Both the position numbers and the translations under genes were made by a program. 28,902 nt of DNA from a virus. The DNA lies in the UHGV virus genome UHGV-1442816; one strand, 5' to 3'. Shown here piece after piece: positions 22,134 through 28,579 of this stretch (positions are counted from its first letter, which is position 1; each line of letters starts with the position of its first letter). The notes below the pieces were generated by a model. It was not told the origin of the DNA, did no database searches, and worked only from the letters and a program-made list of their open reading frames with translations.

Positions 22134-22757
22134 TTAACGTGTGACCGCATTCAAAATGTTGTCTGCGATTGACTCTTCTTTGTGGCATTGCACCACCAGA
22201 GCGTCATACAGCGGCTTAACAGTGCGTGACCAGGTTGGTTGGGTAAGGTTGGGTATTAGCATCGTCACAGCGCGATATGCGGCGCTTGCTGGCATTCTTG
22301 AATAGCCGACACCTTTGCATCTTCCGCATTCTTTCTCAACAACTCTCCCCCACAGCTCTGTTTTTGATATATCAACCGCACGGCCTGTACCGTGGCAATC
22401 TCTGCACCTTGCTCCCGGCGTCGCGGCACTACGGCAATAATCCGCATAAGCGAATGTTGCGAGCACTTGCAGTACCTTTGCCTTAGTATTTCCTTCAAGC
22501 TTTGCCACGCCACGGTATTTCCCCGATACCTTGTGTGCAAATTGCATCAGATAGTTGATAGCCTTTTGTTTGTCGTTCTGGCTGAGTTCGTGCTTACCGC
22601 AGAATGCAGCCATACCGAATCCGGCTTGTGATTGCGCCATCCCCATAGCAGCCATCACATCAGTACCGGAAAGAGAGTCAGAAGCCGTGGCCCGTGGTGA
22701 GTCGCTCATCATCGGGCTTTTTGGCGAATGAAATTTAGCTACGCTTTCGAGTCTCAT
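22134..22757 (-). CDS. Q: Late gene antiterminator Q (lambda Q-type)
   Basis: 207-aa translation matches my recollection of lambda Q along its length, including the Cys-rich zinc-binding region (CRDCHGTGR...CGRCKGVG). Confidence 0.9.
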   Translation of the reverse strand: MRLESVAKFHSPKSPMMSDSPRATASDSLSGTDVMAAMGMAQSQAGFGMAAFCGKHELSQNDKQKAINYLMQFAHKVSGKYRGVAKLEGNTKAKVLQVLATFAYADYCRSAATPGARCRDCHGTGRAVDISKTELWGRVVEKECGRCKGVGYSRMPASAAYRAVTMLIPNLTQPTWSRTVKPLYDALVVQCHKEESIADNILNAVTR

Positions 22758-23301: not shown

Positions 23302-23576
23302 TGGACAAACACCCTCCCATTGTTAACCAATTTTTTAAGGGTAAGCACAATGGCCCGATCCATTTCAGCCCTTCGCTCTTCCCTGCTCATATCTCTCCCA
23401 TTATCAATTCTTGAATGACAATCAACACATAGCGCAGCAGTAAGGCAATCATCTACTTTAATCCCAACCCCCTTCCCTTCATTTCTGTGAGCGGCCTGAA
23501 CTCCGTATCTTCCGCAAAGAACGCAAAATTCAATATCCCTGACTGCCTGAAGCCATTTTTTGCTTCTAAACATCAA
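23298..23576 (-). CDS. Small Cys/His-rich nin-region protein (DUF1364 / YbcO-like, putative nuclease)
   Basis: 92-aa ORF with CVLCG...H...C...CVDCH pattern; located just upstream of rusA as in other lambdoid prophages. Confidence 0.45.
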   Translation of the reverse strand: MMFRSKKWLQAVRDIEFCVLCGRYGVQAAHRNEGKGVGIKVDDCLTAALCVDCHSRIDNGRDMSREERRAEMDRAIVLTLKKLVNNGRVFVQ

Positions 23577-24075
23577 TCCCCTCCAAAAAACGTCGGTACG
23601 CTGATTTGTTTTTTATGTTGCACACTGTCTGCGCACAAACACCAAATTCTTTGGCTATATCTCTGTATTTGCCTTTTGATTTATATATTGATTTCACTTG
23701 TTCTGGCGTTAGTTTGCAGAAGTGATGATTAAACCCATGAACAAGCAATCCGGAATCAAATCCATGTTTCGCATTTTCTGTTCGCGTTACCCACTCAAGA
23801 TTTTCAACTTTATTATTAAGTTTATTTCCATCCTTGTGATTAACTTCCGGTTTGCCATCTGGGTTATCAATAAATACTTCTGCAACAATTCTGTGAACCA
23901 TTTTATATGATGGTCTTTTCCCGCCACCTGGATACAGACCGACAAATGCATATCCTCCTGGTTTAATGCCATGAGATAATTTTTTTGATTTACGGCATGA
24001 AATGATGTCTCCATTTTCAGTTACTTTATATATACCCTCAAAGCCGGGGATATCTTTTTCTTTAACATCACTCAT
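23566..24075 (-). CDS. HNH homing-endonuclease-like protein (NUMOD4 plus HNH_3-like)
   Basis: 169-aa ORF with N-terminal GFEGIYKVTENGDIIS, central VNHKDGNKLNNKVENLEWVTRTEN (HNH core) and a C-terminal helix-turn-helix-like segment; conspicuously AT-rich. Confidence 0.75.
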   Translation of the reverse strand: MSDVKEKDIPGFEGIYKVTENGDIISCRKSKKLSHGIKPGGYAFVGLYPGGGKRPSYKMVHRIVAEVFIDNPDGKPEVNHKDGNKLNNKVENLEWVTRTENAKHGFDSGLLVHGFNHHFCKLTPEQVKSIYKSKGKYRDIAKEFGVCAQTVCNIKNKSAYRRFLEGIDV

Positions 24076-24651: not shown

Positions 24652-24826
24652 ATTTCCTCGCACGATGTCTTAGCCACCGGATATCCCACAGGTGAGCCGT
24701 GTAGTTGAAGGTTTTTACGTCAGATTCTTTTGGGATTGGCTTGGGTTTATTTCTGGAGCGTTTCGTTGGAAGGTATTTGCAGTTTTCACAGATTATGTCG
24801 GTGATACTTCGTCGCTGTCTCGCCAT
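24650..24826 (-). CDS. ninE: NinE
   Basis: Below size cutoff. Translation [58 protein letters not shown], with AGGAGG Shine-Dalgarno upstream; matches my recollection of lambda NinE. Confidence 0.7.
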
Positions 24827-24966
24827 ACGTCCTCCTTTTCCTGCGGTAGTGGTAAAACTCCTGTTGGTGTTCTTTCACACCGGAGACACCATCGATTCCA
24901 GTAAGGTTGATTTGGTCTGAAGCGGTTATCTTCTTTGCATTCACCGCACCGATCACATCGCATCAT
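24793..24966 (-). CDS. ninD: NinD (zinc-ribbon-like)
   Basis: 57 aa from the Met whose ATG overlaps the ninB stop: [34 protein letters not shown]... Overlaps ninE by 34 nt as I recall for lambda ninD/ninE. Confidence 0.6.
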
Positions 24967-25403
24967 GCTGCCCGGTCTCCCCATCGCGCTTTCCATTCGA
25001 GAGCCAGTCGCGCTTCGTCTGACCACTTAACGCCACGCTCTGTACCGAATGCCTGTATAAGCTCTAATAGCTCCGCAAATTCGCTTACACGCATCCTGCT
25101 GGTTGACTGGCCTATTACCACAAAGCCATTCCCGGCAAGGTTAGGAACAACATCCTGCTGCTTTAATGCTGCGGTAAACACACACTTCCAGCTTTCTGCA
25201 TCCAGCCAGCGACCATGCCATTCAACCTGACGAGAGACGTCACCAAGGCAAGCCCAAAGCTTTCGGTTCTGGTCTAAGCTGCGGTTGCGTTCCTGAATGG
25301 TTACTACGATTGGTTTGGTTGGGTCTGGAAGAATTTGCTGTATCGCGTGAATAGCGTTTTGTTGATGAATGGGGCTTCTTAGTTCAAACGTTAGCTTCCT
25401 CAT
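24963..25403 (-). CDS. ninB: NinB (Orf-family recombination mediator)
   Basis: 146-aa translation is near-identical to lambda NinB by recollection (...[56 protein letters not shown]...). Confidence 0.9.
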
Positions 25404-25638
25404 TGCTCACCTTCTGCACGCATGGATTAATTAACGCCAAAATAGCTTCTGGTTTCTCAATAACATCGAACCGCTCACCACTTGTCATTCTTACAATCGT
25501 AATCCCGGCCTCAAATAGGGTTTCGATGTTGTCAGAGTTAACGTACAAGGGCTCATATGCACTTCTGGTGCTTTCTATCACGCCTGTGCTTGGTGGCTGA
25601 TAGATGCTGCATTGCATGGTTAATTTTATAAATGGCAT
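25384..25638 (-). CDS. Hypothetical protein in the position of lambda ren
   Basis: 84-aa ORF between helicase-side accessory genes and ninB; no lambda Ren similarity. Confidence 0.4.
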   Translation of the reverse strand: MPFIKLTMQCSIYQPPSTGVIESTRSAYEPLYVNSDNIETLFEAGITIVRMTSGERFDVIEKPEAILALINPCVQKVSNEEANV

Positions 25639-25642
25639 ATAC

Positions 25643-25963
25643 TCACTCCTTCACTTTGATTCCAGCAGCGCGGATGTTTTCCTCATAAGCATCCATTGCA
25701 TCACCGAAGCCATTGGAATAATCAACAGTAAACCCTTTGGCTAATGCTTCTCTGCTGTCGATAAACTTTGGCGCGGTTATTTCAATAGCTGATCGCGATG
25801 CCTGCCACGTTTGCCAGTGGCCTTGAACATCGTCCATCACGTATTGACCACCAATATTACCACTGCCAATTTCATGGTGATTTTCAGGGTAACGGATAAG
25901 GTCTGAGGATTCGCCTCCACGTCGCAACCAACTTTCTTCAAACTGCCTTCTTGATTCGTCCAT
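25643..25963 (-). CDS. Hypothetical protein
   Basis: 106-aa ORF, tightly packed with neighbours. Confidence 0.4.
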   Translation of the reverse strand: MDESRRQFEESWLRRGGESSDLIRYPENHHEIGSGNIGGQYVMDDVQGHWQTWQASRSAIEITAPKFIDSREALAKGFTVDYSNGFGDAMDAYEENIRAAGIKVKE

Positions 25964-25980
25964 CGGTACTTACCCTCAGT

Positions 25981-26187
25981 TCAACTCAAAAAACGCCACG
26001 CCATTTTTGCTACAGCGACAGGCATAACACCGATAATCACCCAGACAAATGCAGCGCCAAACAACGTATACCATGGGTCTTTACCGTCATTCACAAGACG
26101 AATGTAGCCATGCAGAACAATAAAAAACGTCAGAAGAATCCATCCAACGCCGACGCATTTGAGTGCGACGAGCATAAACTCAACCAC
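25981..26187 (-). CDS. Small membrane protein with two predicted transmembrane helices
   Basis: 68-aa ORF starting at GTG; hydrophobic stretches VALKCVGVGWILLTFFIVL and FGAAFVWVIIGVMPVAVA. Confidence 0.45.
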   Translation of the reverse strand: MVEFMLVALKCVGVGWILLTFFIVLHGYIRLVNDGKDPWYTLFGAAFVWVIIGVMPVAVAKMAWRFLS

Positions 26188-26263
26188 GATTTACTCTCCC
26201 CCAAATAAAAAGGCCTGCGATTACCAGCAGGCCTGTTACAAGCTCAGTGATGTAGATGGTCAT
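26180..26263 (-). CDS. 27-aa hydrophobic peptide, translationally coupled to helicase
   Basis: Not in ORF track. ATG overlaps helicase stop (TGATG) with AAGGAGG 7 nt upstream; product MTIYITELVTGLLVIAGLFIWGRVNRG is one transmembrane helix; its stop overlaps the start of the 68-aa gene. Confidence 0.35.
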   Translation of the reverse strand: MTIYITELVTGLLVIAGLFIWGRVNRG

Positions 26264-27714
26264 CAGAATCCTCCTTTCTTCTTGGACTGCGGTTCCTCGC
26301 GTTCACGTCGGCGCATTTCAGCAGACTGTTGGTCTGTGTCATAAATAGCGCCATTTGCCTGAATGCAATACACCGTGCCGGTATTGCCATGACGATTGAG
26401 ACGAAGGATTAGTTCGGTTTCACCAGGTGGAACACTGTCATCAAAAGCGCCTTCACGATGGATCCCAACCCAATAATCGCAATCCTGTTCAATCTGCCCT
26501 GTATCGCGCGAGTCACTTGGTAATGGGCGTTTATTGGTTCGGCTTTCCAATGCGCGGTTAAGCTGTGTCAGAAGCACAACAACGCAATCAAGCTCTTTGG
26601 CAAGGTTCTTCAATCCTTTGGTGATCATGCCGTAAGCAAGGTCGTTGCGATCGGCCTTCTCAGCAGTCATTAGTGTCAGGTAATCGACCAGAATCATGCC
26701 AACGCATCCTTTTTCTCGCTTGATTCGACGGCTTTCGCTGACGATTTGAGCCAGAGATAATCCCGGCGTGTCGTCGATGTAAAGCAGGTCGATTTCACTC
26801 AAGCGATTGGCTGTTTCGATCGCCCTGTTGAAGTCACCATCGTAATCACCCTGATAGCCGTCATCAGCGTCATTTGTCGCCGGAAGGTAAAAAATATTCG
26901 GGTTAACACCTGACTTCTGTCCTACCAGTTTTTCCAGTATCTGGTCACCTGGCATTTCAAGGCTGAACATCAGAGCGGGCTTTTTCTCATGCACCGCACA
27001 GTTGATTGCCATCTGGCTGTATAGCGTCGTTTTCCCCATCTTAGGGCGAGCGCCAATGACGAACAGAGAGCCTTTCACCAGACCTTTCGGTGACAGCATC
27101 CTGTCCAGCGATGGGATCCCTGTGCTCATTCCCCGTTGTTCGCCTGATGGGTCAAATCGTTTCTCAAGGTCGCTAACCCAGTCTTCCATAACCTCACCAA
27201 ATGAGCGAAGGCCGCGACGCGATCCGGTTTTTGCATGGTCTGTCAGTTGCGTGAAAATCGCCTGAATAGCTTCGTACTTCTGCGTCGCAGTCATTCCGTT
27301 GCGGGAATAGAGCAATTCCGTCGCTTCAGTCATGCGGTTGATGGCGTAGCGTTCCATTGCGGTTTCGCGAACCTGCATTGCATAGGCAACGATGTTTGCG
27401 GCGCTTGGCGTGTTCTTTGCGATCTCAGTGATATAAGCAAAACCGCCAACAGACGCCGTTAACGATTTACGCTCCAGTTCATCGAAAAGCGTCAGGCCAT
27501 CTACTGGCTTTTGCTCCCGGTGCATTCTGGTTATTTCTTCGAAAATGATTTTGTGTGGTCGGCTGTAAAATGAATCAGGCTTCAGCATCGCCAGAACTTT
27601 CTGGACGCGCTCACTGCTGTCATCATCCAGAAGCAATCCACCAATCACCGCCTGCTCTGCCTCGATGCTATGGGGCGGCGCATAAAAATTATCGGTCATC
27701 GTGTTCACCCTCAC
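26263..27714 (-). CDS. Replicative DNA helicase, DnaB family (P22 gp12-like)
   Basis: 483-aa ORF with N-terminal AEQAVIGGLLLDDD (DnaB N-domain-like) and Walker A GARPKMGKTT. Confidence 0.85.
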   Translation of the reverse strand: MRVNTMTDNFYAPPHSIEAEQAVIGGLLLDDDSSERVQKVLAMLKPDSFYSRPHKIIFEEITRMHREQKPVDGLTLFDELERKSLTASVGGFAYITEIAKNTPSAANIVAYAMQVRETAMERYAINRMTEATELLYSRNGMTATQKYEAIQAIFTQLTDHAKTGSRRGLRSFGEVMEDWVSDLEKRFDPSGEQRGMSTGIPSLDRMLSPKGLVKGSLFVIGARPKMGKTTLYSQMAINCAVHEKKPALMFSLEMPGDQILEKLVGQKSGVNPNIFYLPATNDADDGYQGDYDGDFNRAIETANRLSEIDLLYIDDTPGLSLAQIVSESRRIKREKGCVGMILVDYLTLMTAEKADRNDLAYGMITKGLKNLAKELDCVVVLLTQLNRALESRTNKRPLPSDSRDTGQIEQDCDYWVGIHREGAFDDSVPPGETELILRLNRHGNTGTVYCIQANGAIYDTDQQSAEMRRREREEPQSKKKGGF

Positions 27715-28579
27715 GAACTTTCAGGTAGGTATTATCGTTAAGCAGGAAATCAAATCCCTTTTTGTGCCAGACGGTTCCGCGTTGATGGTTTTGGCGCTCT
27801 TCGAACATCCATCGGCAATTTTCGCCTACGTAGCTCAAATAATTTCTCCAGTCCTGCATCGTGAACCCATGCCCGTCAAGCTGGCGGGTTATCACTCCGG
27901 CTTTGCGCCAGAACGTTCGGATCTGGTTTTTACGCTTGTCATTCAGTGCGCGGATTTTTGGCGCTTCAGGAAGGATTTCGTGGTAAGCATCGACAACATC
28001 CTGACAGCTAACGGAAGGTTTTTTCTTGTCAGACTTTTTGTCTGCTGCGGTACTCTCTAATACGTCAGTATTAGAGATATTATTTATATTATTGTTTATG
28101 GACAACCGTTGGACAACCGTTGGACAATCTCCGCTGAGAGCCGCGCCATTACTGGTGTTTGCGTTGGACAACCGTTGGACAACCGTTGGACAATTTTTTG
28201 CCTGAAAATCGTCATATTTAACGATTGTAAACAGGCTAAATTTCTTCCCCATCGAGCAAATATTAAGCATCCCTTTCGACTCAAAAGTCCGTAATAAGCT
28301 CCGAACTTTGTTGTCGGGGATGAATGTTTCTCTGACCAGCGACGGGCGTCCAGTTATCATCTGACCGCGATCAACAGTTATCGGCCCGATATCCGTATTG
28401 ACGACAGTAGATTCGTGATTAGCCTTGAGGATTAAGTGAAGCCAAAGATGTACTGCCTGAGAGTCCTTATAGAGCCTGCTGTCCATAAACTGGCGGTGTA
28501 TAGAGACATACCCCATACTGGATGCCTCCTGATGTTGTACAGGGTTATGCCTGTAATCAGCTAACTTAACGACGCCCAT
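27689..28579 (-). CDS. Replication initiator, O-like, with origin iterons inside the coding sequence
   Basis: 296-aa ORF directly upstream of the helicase gene; mid-gene iteron clusters encode the repeated peptide CPTVVQRLS. Confidence 0.75.
   Translation of the reverse strand: MGVVKLADYRHNPVQHQEASSMGYVSIHRQFMDSRLYKDSQAVHLWLHLILKANHESTVVNTDIGPITVDRGQMITGRPSLVRETFIPDNKVRSLLRTFESKGMLNICSMGKKFSLFTIVKYDDFQAKNCPTVVQRLSNANTSNGAALSGDCPTVVQRLSINNNINNISNTDVLESTAADKKSDKKKPSVSCQDVVDAYHEILPEAPKIRALNDKRKNQIRTFWRKAGVITRQLDGHGFTMQDWRNYLSYVGENCRWMFEERQNHQRGTVWHKKGFDFLLNDNTYLKVREGEHDDR
28099..28195. repeat. Replication origin iterons: two clusters of TGGACAACCGT repeats
   Basis: TGGACAACCGT at 28099, 28110, 28165 and 28176, each pair followed by a partial copy (TGGACAAT); 35-bp spacer; AT-rich tracts on both sides (28040..28098 and 28191..28245). 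Confidence 0.7.

Follow-up and report, generated by a model that had tools for sequence, protein, structure and literature searches.

The window analysed here is the whole 28,902-nt stretch of UHGV virus genome UHGV-1442816, the right end of which carries the early-right operon of a lambdoid prophage on the minus strand. An earlier note had singled out two small open reading frames (ORFs) in this operon, of 106 and 84 amino acids (aa), as unrecognised genes that lack lambda counterparts and sit in the ren position. Both ORFs were found as described, at 25643-25963 and 25384-25638 (minus), and both do lie between the replication genes and ninB; the upstream flank is the gene for a DnaB-type replicative helicase (26263-27714, minus; Pfam DnaB and DnaB_C) and the downstream flank is the gene for the recombination mediator NinB/Orf (24963-25403, minus; Pfam NinB, E 2e-54). 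The 106-aa ORF encodes a Phage_phiTE_015-family protein (PF26207, PHROG 343) with an isoelectric point (pI) of 4.9, and the 84-aa ORF encodes a phage-branch protein of the FlbD/SwrD fold (PF06289, PHROG 8458; pI 4.48). A third ORF of 68 aa (25981-26187, minus), which was left out of the earlier note, shares the interval with them. It matches PHROG 1165 (E 2e-38), a family of unknown function. Its product (pI 9.0) is predicted to be a small membrane protein with two transmembrane segments, its two hydrophobic stretches being consistent with a membrane hairpin, and it shares 57% identity with its HK022 counterpart.

The ORFs are tightly packed in the manner of an operon. The 106-aa ORF has a GAGGG Shine-Dalgarno sequence that is overlapped by the stop codon ending the 68-aa ORF, and its own terminal codons (AAG GAG TGA) supply an AAGGAG Shine-Dalgarno sequence located 9 nt ahead of the start codon (ATG) of the 84-aa ORF. 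The 3' end of the 84-aa ORF and the start of ninB overlap by 20 nt. The near-invariant C-terminal K-V-K-E of the phiTE_015 protein (25643-25660, minus; encoded GTG AAG GAG TGA) therefore doubles as the ribosome-binding site of the FlbD-like gene, so that a protein anchor and a gene junction coincide.

The interval between tR2 and ninB

A terminator scan identified a strong terminator-like hairpin, followed by a T-run, at 26234-26211 on the minus strand, 29 nt past the helicase stop codon. This tR2-type intrinsic terminator, which spans 26201-26234 (minus) with its T-run, has an 8-bp GC-rich stem (AGGCCTGC/GCAGGCCT), and the 68-aa ORF is the first gene after it. When aligned, a block of ~70 nt around the hairpin was nearly identical both to the lambda segment that separates ren from ninB and to the stretch that carries the tR2 annotation in Sf6. 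In lambda, ninB begins right after this block, whereas in the window the 68-aa, 106-aa and 84-aa ORFs intervene. Since the tR2 block sits straight after the helicase gene, the ORFs lie between tR2 and ninB, in the first slot of the nin region and not in the ren slot. This first slot is where other phages carry ninA. No ren-like gene was present between the helicase gene and tR2, tblastn searches with Ren homologues found none anywhere in the window (E 0.46 or worse), and neither the 84-aa nor the 106-aa protein matched PHROG 142 (lambda Ren) or showed sequence similarity to Ren. Placement of the two ORFs in the ren position was therefore not upheld.

No sigma-70-like promoter was found in 24800-26500, compared to 2.0 expected by chance. 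With tR2 upstream and no promoter-like site of its own, the gene cassette would be made only when N antitermination is active, and the simplest reading is that its expression is delayed-early and N-dependent. The lack of a promoter-like site in the interval also makes expression from a repressed prophage, which would be needed for host-protecting exclusion, unlikely.

In contrast to the earlier view that the two genes were unrecognised, both fall into catalogued families, and public records already carry annotations for them. The 84-aa protein matched Pfam FlbD (PF06289) with a borderline score (27.7 bits, cutoff 24.7; E 2e-6) and PHROG 8458, labelled 'flagellar protein', with an E of 2e-40. 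The 106-aa protein matched phrog_343 over its full length (residues 1-106; E 9e-30), and PF26207 is precomputed on relatives that are 95-97% identical to it. At a 98.6%-identical locus the RefSeq/PGAP annotation reads 'phiTE_015 family protein' and 'flagellar FlbD family protein', with the 68-aa ORF given as hypothetical. Exact sequences of all three proteins occur on public contigs (84-aa, 22; 106-aa, 275; 68-aa, 10), the 68-aa protein being part of a 440-member cluster, and orthologues of the 106-aa/84-aa pair are gp48 and gp49 of Sf6 and unannotated ORFs of HK022.

The best tblastn match of the two ORFs to lambda 27000-48502 had an E of 4, confirming that they have no lambda counterpart. 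Both proteins have many relatives across genera, at identities down to 30-40% and with invariant residues, a degree of conservation that shows both ORFs to be real genes. NCBIfam contained no match for either protein, PADLOC gave none at E up to 1 for the 68-aa, 106-aa and 84-aa ORFs, and searches of PDB sequences, carried out with single sequences and with a profile, returned chance matches only for both proteins. No homology of either protein to housekeeping replication proteins was found, an outcome that leaves the earlier proposal unrefuted on that count. Across phages the interval was highly mosaic, in agreement with the proposal that it is an accessory locus.

Anchors and cassettes of the 106-aa protein

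Alignment of the phiTE_015 family revealed three anchors, MDESRKQF, W..W.ASR.AIEI.P and I..AG.KVK, which in the 106-aa protein correspond to F8, W50..W53.ASR57.AIEI.P65 and I97..AG101.KVK105. Residues F8, W50, W53, S56, R57, E61, I62, P65, I97, A100, G101, V104 and K105 were invariant or nearly so. The segments at approximately residues 10-49 and 66-96 behave as swappable cassettes: the N cassette of the window was seen in combination with 16 distinct C cassettes, and the C cassette of the window in combination with 17 distinct N cassettes. A DNA match to part of the gene was present in 265 E. coli genomes and a match to all of it in 51, and the partial matches stop at the middle anchor. These results show that the phiTE_015 family is subject to intragenic mosaicism, and its anchor-and-cassette design is a clear case of mosaicism inside a gene.

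The AlphaFold2 model of the protein (pLDDT 80, above 90 in the C-terminal half) consists of a helix (3-14), a disordered loop (28-41), a helix (43-58), a strand (61-63), two further helices (70-75 and 80-99) and a final strand (103-105). No solved structure resembled this model, and BFVD returned uncharacterised phage proteins only. Members of the family also occur in clusters of small early genes in virulent phages, among them swi2-like coliphages, Jersey-like Salmonella phages and Pseudomonas Pakpunavirus, and the anchors were retained in the Pseudomonas phages even though DNA homology had been lost. Many relatives (P0130-P0148 and the P0124/P0128 type) were called with N-terminal extensions, one of them Cys-rich (MSKCQKCNNTGMCDSGG...ECDC) and one starting MRWAIKHKSGRTLFVTSDEF..., on contigs of ~47 kb; these extensions may be extra domains or upstream small ORFs that were merged by the gene callers.

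A stretch like the C-terminal ~30-45 aa of the 106-aa protein also appears to terminate Ead/Ea22-like proteins and some FlbD-like proteins, with the consensus LP...[FWY]xx[GD]Y..G...A[IM][DE].....[IL]..AG[IL]KV[KE]. The Ead/Ea22-like carriers are encoded in Klebsiella and Salmonella prophages, and one of the FlbD-like carriers is a 120-aa Atlantibacter protein from a cluster of five members. For this module, a local hidden Markov model (HMM) gave an E of 8e-6 over a short alignment, and a Klebsiella phiTE_015 protein had a weak match to Ead_Ea22. On sequence comparison, the link between phiTE_015, Ead/Ea22 and FlbD-like proteins was only moderately supported, and the module seems to be passed among early accessory proteins that are not otherwise related. 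It was seen in L008 (4879-5265), L014 (3037-3516), P0252, P0016 and L010 (5033-5470), the last of which is a hybrid of a phiTE_015-type N-terminus and an Ea22-type coiled coil. The 106-aa protein itself had no match to Pfam Ead_Ea22 (PF13935) at E up to 1, and its model contained no long coiled coil. Homology of the module with the solved C-terminal domain of lambda Ea22 was considered and rejected, since the topology of that domain is b-b-a-b-b-a and the one predicted here is b-a-a-b. Lambda Ea22 is pro-lysogenic (PMC7093339, PMC10834534).

A rival account is that the genes have little or no selected function and are mosaic filler that recombination at conserved junction sequences has swept along. 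Under laboratory conditions phages can do without their nin genes, which originate through illegitimate recombination (PMC5630979); the 84-aa gene was rare in E. coli, with 14 of 5426 complete genomes carrying it; and some of the conservation in the 106-aa ORF could reside at the DNA level, given that its K-V-K-E codons are the ribosome-binding site of the next gene. Such an explanation nevertheless appears improbable, as protein-level conservation, invariant residues included, extends across genera and to identities as low as 30-40% in both families, the phiTE_015 anchors are kept in Pseudomonas phages that lack DNA homology, and confident folds were predicted for both proteins.

The 84-aa FlbD-like protein and its genomic company

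A search with the single 84-aa query retrieved only 4 proteins, as a result of the word index, and an alignment seeded with phage homologues was used instead. At an E of 1e-3 or better, a phage-family profile retrieved 99 of 1.8 billion representative proteins, including canonical FlbD proteins with the TPDT motif (E 1e-5 to 1e-3), which themselves scored 68-92 bits to PF06289. Retrieval of these canonical proteins indicated that the homology of the 84-aa family to FlbD is real, although its Klebsiella relatives scored only 17.7 bits to PF06289, which is under the cutoff.

The predicted structure was confident and beta-rich (b1-b2-3_10-b3-b4-b5-alpha), with the strand order and the C-terminal helix of FlbD/SwrD; the best structural match of the model was RemA (PDB 7bme/7p1w), followed by the LytTR domain. 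Crystal structures of SwrD (= FlbD) from Bacillus and Borrelia, described in a 2026 preprint, are hexameric rings with the same strand order and the same structural neighbours (PMC13232269). The conserved residues of SwrD are Asn15, Ile19, Glu23 and Pro26-Asp27-Thr28, and its pore motif Asn15-x3-Ile/Leu19 stabilises the hexamer (PMC13232269). In SwrD numbering, the 84-aa protein has kept Asn15 (N34), Ile19 (I38), Glu20 (E39) and Thr28 (T47); the S-G turn and the V-x-E-x-P-E-x-I sequence with which the helix begins are preserved as well. Replaced residues were Arg6 (Met8), Glu23 (Phe42), Pro26 (Gly45) and Asp27 (Ile46), and an extra beta-hairpin of 15-17 aa follows strand 1. The net charge of the protein was about -5.5, and the median pI of the family was 4.98. 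At the level of sequence, these comparisons showed that the 84-aa protein is genuinely homologous to FlbD/SwrD, though divergent, and that the phage branch has lost motifs of the flagellar family. The label 'flagellar FlbD family protein' (PGAP, PHROGs) is thus probably misleading, in functional terms, for the phage branch.

Most of the best 120 relatives of the 84-aa protein were encoded in Klebsiella prophages and the rest in Pectobacterium, Salmonella, Enterobacter and Plesiomonas; the family also occurs in E. coli, where the gene abuts ninB in all 14 of the genomes that carry it. Klebsiella pneumoniae and Shigella, the host of Sf6, are non-flagellate. To survey the gene neighbourhood, IMG/VR was scanned and the neighbours of the FlbD-like gene were annotated locally in the 71 viral loci that were obtained. 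All 71 loci had a phage early-gene context and none a flagellar operon.

A role as a flagellar or swarming factor, through which the phage would alter stator (MotAB) output and host motility, is therefore very unlikely, as the flagellar motifs are lost, the protein is acidic and the gene is found mainly in prophages of hosts that lack flagella, such as Klebsiella and Shigella. Such a role would fit with the Pfam FlbD match above the gathering score, with the motility of E. coli, Salmonella and Pectobacterium hosts, and with the impaired swarming that follows SwrD loss (PMC13232269). AlphaFold also predicts a contact between SwrD and MotA, with Arg6 and Asp27 at the interface, a contact that could not be confirmed (PMC13232269). 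In the 84-aa protein, however, these predicted interface residues and the peripheral Pro-Asp are replaced, the FlbD-like gene was never found in a flagellar operon, and PF06289 is reported absent from Escherichia itself (PMC13232269).

The neighbourhood survey separated two main arrangements. In the HK022/Sf6-type branch, which accounts for 17 of the 71 loci, the FlbD-like gene is preceded in every case, at a distance of 5 nt, by the end of a phiTE_015-family gene, and ninB overlaps it downstream; in 14 of these 17 loci a lambda-type tR2 lies upstream, 530-900 nt away from the FlbD-like gene. The second arrangement, seen in 44 of the 71 loci, places a Ren homologue immediately upstream, with a 4-nt overlap. 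These homologues either match lambda Ren directly by BLAST or are of the PHROG 1687/142 winged-helix type, and the Ren/FlbD-like pairing stands behind three replication modules, lambda-P-type, DnaB-type and DUF6475-type. Elsewhere the gene was found in P22-like Salmonella prophages, where it follows Abc2 in the PL operon, and between N and cIII/kil, the ral/sieB slot. The FlbD-like gene is thus a mobile early accessory gene with a strong preference for a post-replication, Ren-associated position. A fixed pair of 106-aa and 84-aa genes was considered and rejected: in phiv205-1 the phiTE_015 gene stands by itself, in the Salmonella, Klebsiella and ZF40 contexts no phiTE_015 gene adjoins the FlbD-like gene, and the pairing was constant only in the HK022/Sf6-type branch. 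Literature searches found no paper on phage FlbD, on its coupling to ren or on phiTE_015.

Two records that join the names of Ren and FlbD were noted. In Klebsiella phage vB_Kpn_RAH1 (locus L005, 3001-3225) the FlbD-like gene, ORF17, is labelled 'exclusion protein ren' in GenBank, although the Ren-like winged-helix gene is the upstream ORF16, and the label has probably slipped. P0251 (150 aa, from an ENA contig of 3087 nt) consists of a Ren-like winged-helix N-terminus fused to an FlbD-like core without strand 1 and the hairpin. As Rosetta-stone evidence this fusion was rejected, since it is a singleton and its contig measures just 3 kb; an artefact of assembly or an isolated deletion may account for it.

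A further possibility was that the 84-aa protein is a RemA-like DNA-wrapping or architectural regulator that acts with winged-helix Ren on phage DNA, in the control of replication or transcription. RemA was the top structural match, with LytTR next, a Ren-like winged-helix gene is the partner in the 44 coupled loci, straight behind the replication genes, one Ren::FlbD-like fusion (P0251) was found, and Ren, which interacts with Rex proteins in two-hybrid assays, is 'likely involved in DNA replication' (10.1101/2021.04.19.439022). This role was nonetheless judged unlikely because the Arg-bearing helical b3-b4 insertion is missing, its place in the model being taken by a tight Gly45-x-Thr47 turn, and because the charge of the protein is acidic; in addition, the window contains no Ren homologue and the fusion is the singleton described above.

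The suggestion that the ORFs are candidates for exclusion-type functions stood in part. A superinfection-exclusion or anti-exclusion module analogous to Rex/Ren would be consistent with the accessory slot behind the replication genes, with the adjoining small membrane protein of 68 aa, with hypervariable cassettes that fit an arms race, with the tie of the FlbD-like family to ren that comparative genomics revealed, and with the location of the gene in other phages, where it neighbours anti-defence genes (for example Abc2) or occupies the ral/sieB slot. On the other hand, there were no PADLOC matches, no similarity of the proteins to Ren and no Ren in the window; location behind tR2 without a promoter-like site makes lysogen expression, and with it host-protecting exclusion, unlikely; and phiTE_015 proteins are also encoded by strictly virulent phages, which have no lysogen to protect. 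A module of this kind was accordingly considered doubtful as an account of the whole gene cassette, with an anti-exclusion or host-modulating role in lytic growth being possible. The preference of the FlbD-like gene for a Ren-associated position does, however, partly rescue the intuition that led the earlier reader to the ren slot.

Interpretation and comparison with known systems

We tentatively favour a reading in which a dispensable, delayed-early gene cassette encodes a small acidic ring (the 84-aa protein) and a modular adaptor (the 106-aa protein), both of which act by binding host or phage proteins. The stretch from tR2 to ninB would then be a three-gene dispensable accessory cassette of the early-right operon, made up of the 68-aa membrane protein, the 106-aa phiTE_015 protein and the 84-aa FlbD-like protein, that is expressed during infection or induction under N antitermination and is silent in the repressed prophage. 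With its RemA-like fold and the retained Asn-x3-Ile pore motif, the 84-aa protein would probably assemble as a small ring and, in its post-replication, Ren-associated slot, may serve as an oligomeric binder of a host or phage protein; it would be neither a motor component nor a DNA binder. The 106-aa protein may be a scaffold of three anchors that displays two hypervariable cassettes, most likely a modular protein-binding adaptor. A pool of 30-50 mosaic and dispensable genes was already known to feed the nin region.

Several points weigh against this reading. The sigma-70 consensus used in the promoter scan was crude. Synteny with ren could stem from a shared insertion hotspot and not from a shared function. 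At the position of Asn15, a residue essential to SwrD, many members of the phage branch have Val or Ala, so that ring assembly is not guaranteed across the branch. Comparison of the 84-aa gene with that of Sf6 gave a dN/dS of 0.58, an uninformative value that was based on 13 substitutions only. Finally, the module link to Ead/Ea22 depends on short alignments, for which hhalign gave 82% (P 1e-5, 29 columns) and 51% (26 columns).

On a bolder proposal, phage FlbD/SwrD-fold rings might form a distinct functional class that acts together with Ren in the post-replication slot, either in counter-exclusion (anti-abortive-infection) or by binding, at their cytoplasmic face, the MotA-type 5:2 ion-driven motors that are also present in non-flagellate hosts (ExbB, TolQ, ZorA) and blocking superinfection or Zorya-type defence. 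Such a class is a long shot; if real, it would give the fold its first function outside flagella and provide a handle on the mechanisms of SwrD and Ren.

Overall, the earlier observation was partly confirmed and the interpretation placed on it partly supported. This is an ordinary accessory cassette with one curious member, and two labels have been corrected: the genes belong to the nin region behind tR2 and not to the ren slot, and the 'flagellar' label of the phage FlbD branch is probably misleading as to function. The picture of lambdoid biology is so far unchanged, and the phage FlbD branch with its coupling to ren is a modest curiosity. The Ren/FlbD-like gene pair is all the same a testable lead on two poorly understood proteins, Ren and SwrD.

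The remainder of the operon surrounds the gene cassette on the minus strand. Its gene order is O-like initiator (27689-28579, minus), DnaB-type helicase, the three small ORFs, NinB, NinE, NinX, NinF and an HNH/NUMOD4 endonuclease, after which follow, still on the minus strand, a YbcO/DUF968-like ORF, RusA, NinH and Q (22134-22757). The endonuclease gene (23566-24075, minus; 169 aa, HNH_3 and NUMOD4) is homing-endonuclease-like and lies within the nin region between NinF and the YbcO/DUF968-like ORF. Within the O-like initiator gene, at 28088-28205, there are two clusters of three 11-bp direct repeats (TGGACAACCGT) that are 66 bp apart and encode a repeated CPTVVQRLS peptide; these are presumably replication-origin iterons, as annotated at the equivalent place in Sf6. 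An Rfam scan of the whole window returned no match, so that no RNA element was detected on either strand.

Both the replication genes and the tR2-to-ninB interval were nearest to those of HK022 and Sf6. In these two phages a phiTE_015 gene, an FlbD-like gene and ninB follow one another as they do in the window, and the tR2 and the type of helicase that precede them are shared as well. Identity of the 84-aa protein to its counterpart is 98% for HK022 and 89% for Sf6; for the 106-aa protein, which has another combination of cassettes than these relatives, the values are 72% and 35%, respectively. In addition, Sf6 has two other small genes (46 and 47) in place of the 68-aa ORF. Lambda Ren resembles the products of the window genes in being small, dispensable and encoded just behind the replication genes, and in other phages FlbD-like genes typically have a Ren homologue as their upstream neighbour; the difference is that lambda ren is upstream of tR2 and the 84-aa and 106-aa genes are downstream of it. 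Ead/Ea22-like proteins, from the exo-xis/ea region, and phiTE_015 proteins are alike in being early, dispensable and highly mosaic.

In comparison with FlbD/SwrD, the sequence homology was significant in both directions, and RemA and LytTR are structural neighbours of both. The pore motif Asn-x3-Ile, Glu20, Thr28, the S/N-G turn and the V-x-E-[ST]-P-E-E-I start of the helix are common to the two, but the phage protein has an added hairpin and lacks the conserved Arg6, Glu23, Pro26 and Asp27. FlbD/SwrD is encoded in flagellar operons (fla/che, motAB) of flagellated Bacillota, Actinomycetota or Spirochaetota, whereas the 84-aa gene is part of a phage early operon, in the nin region, and the phage branch is found in Enterobacterales, many of them non-flagellate. 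The biofilm regulator RemA (DUF370), in turn, has an Arg-rich helical b3-b4 insertion for DNA binding and a basic DNA-binding periphery, in contrast to the tight Gly45-Ile46-Thr47 turn in the model of the 84-aa protein and to the acidic character of that protein.

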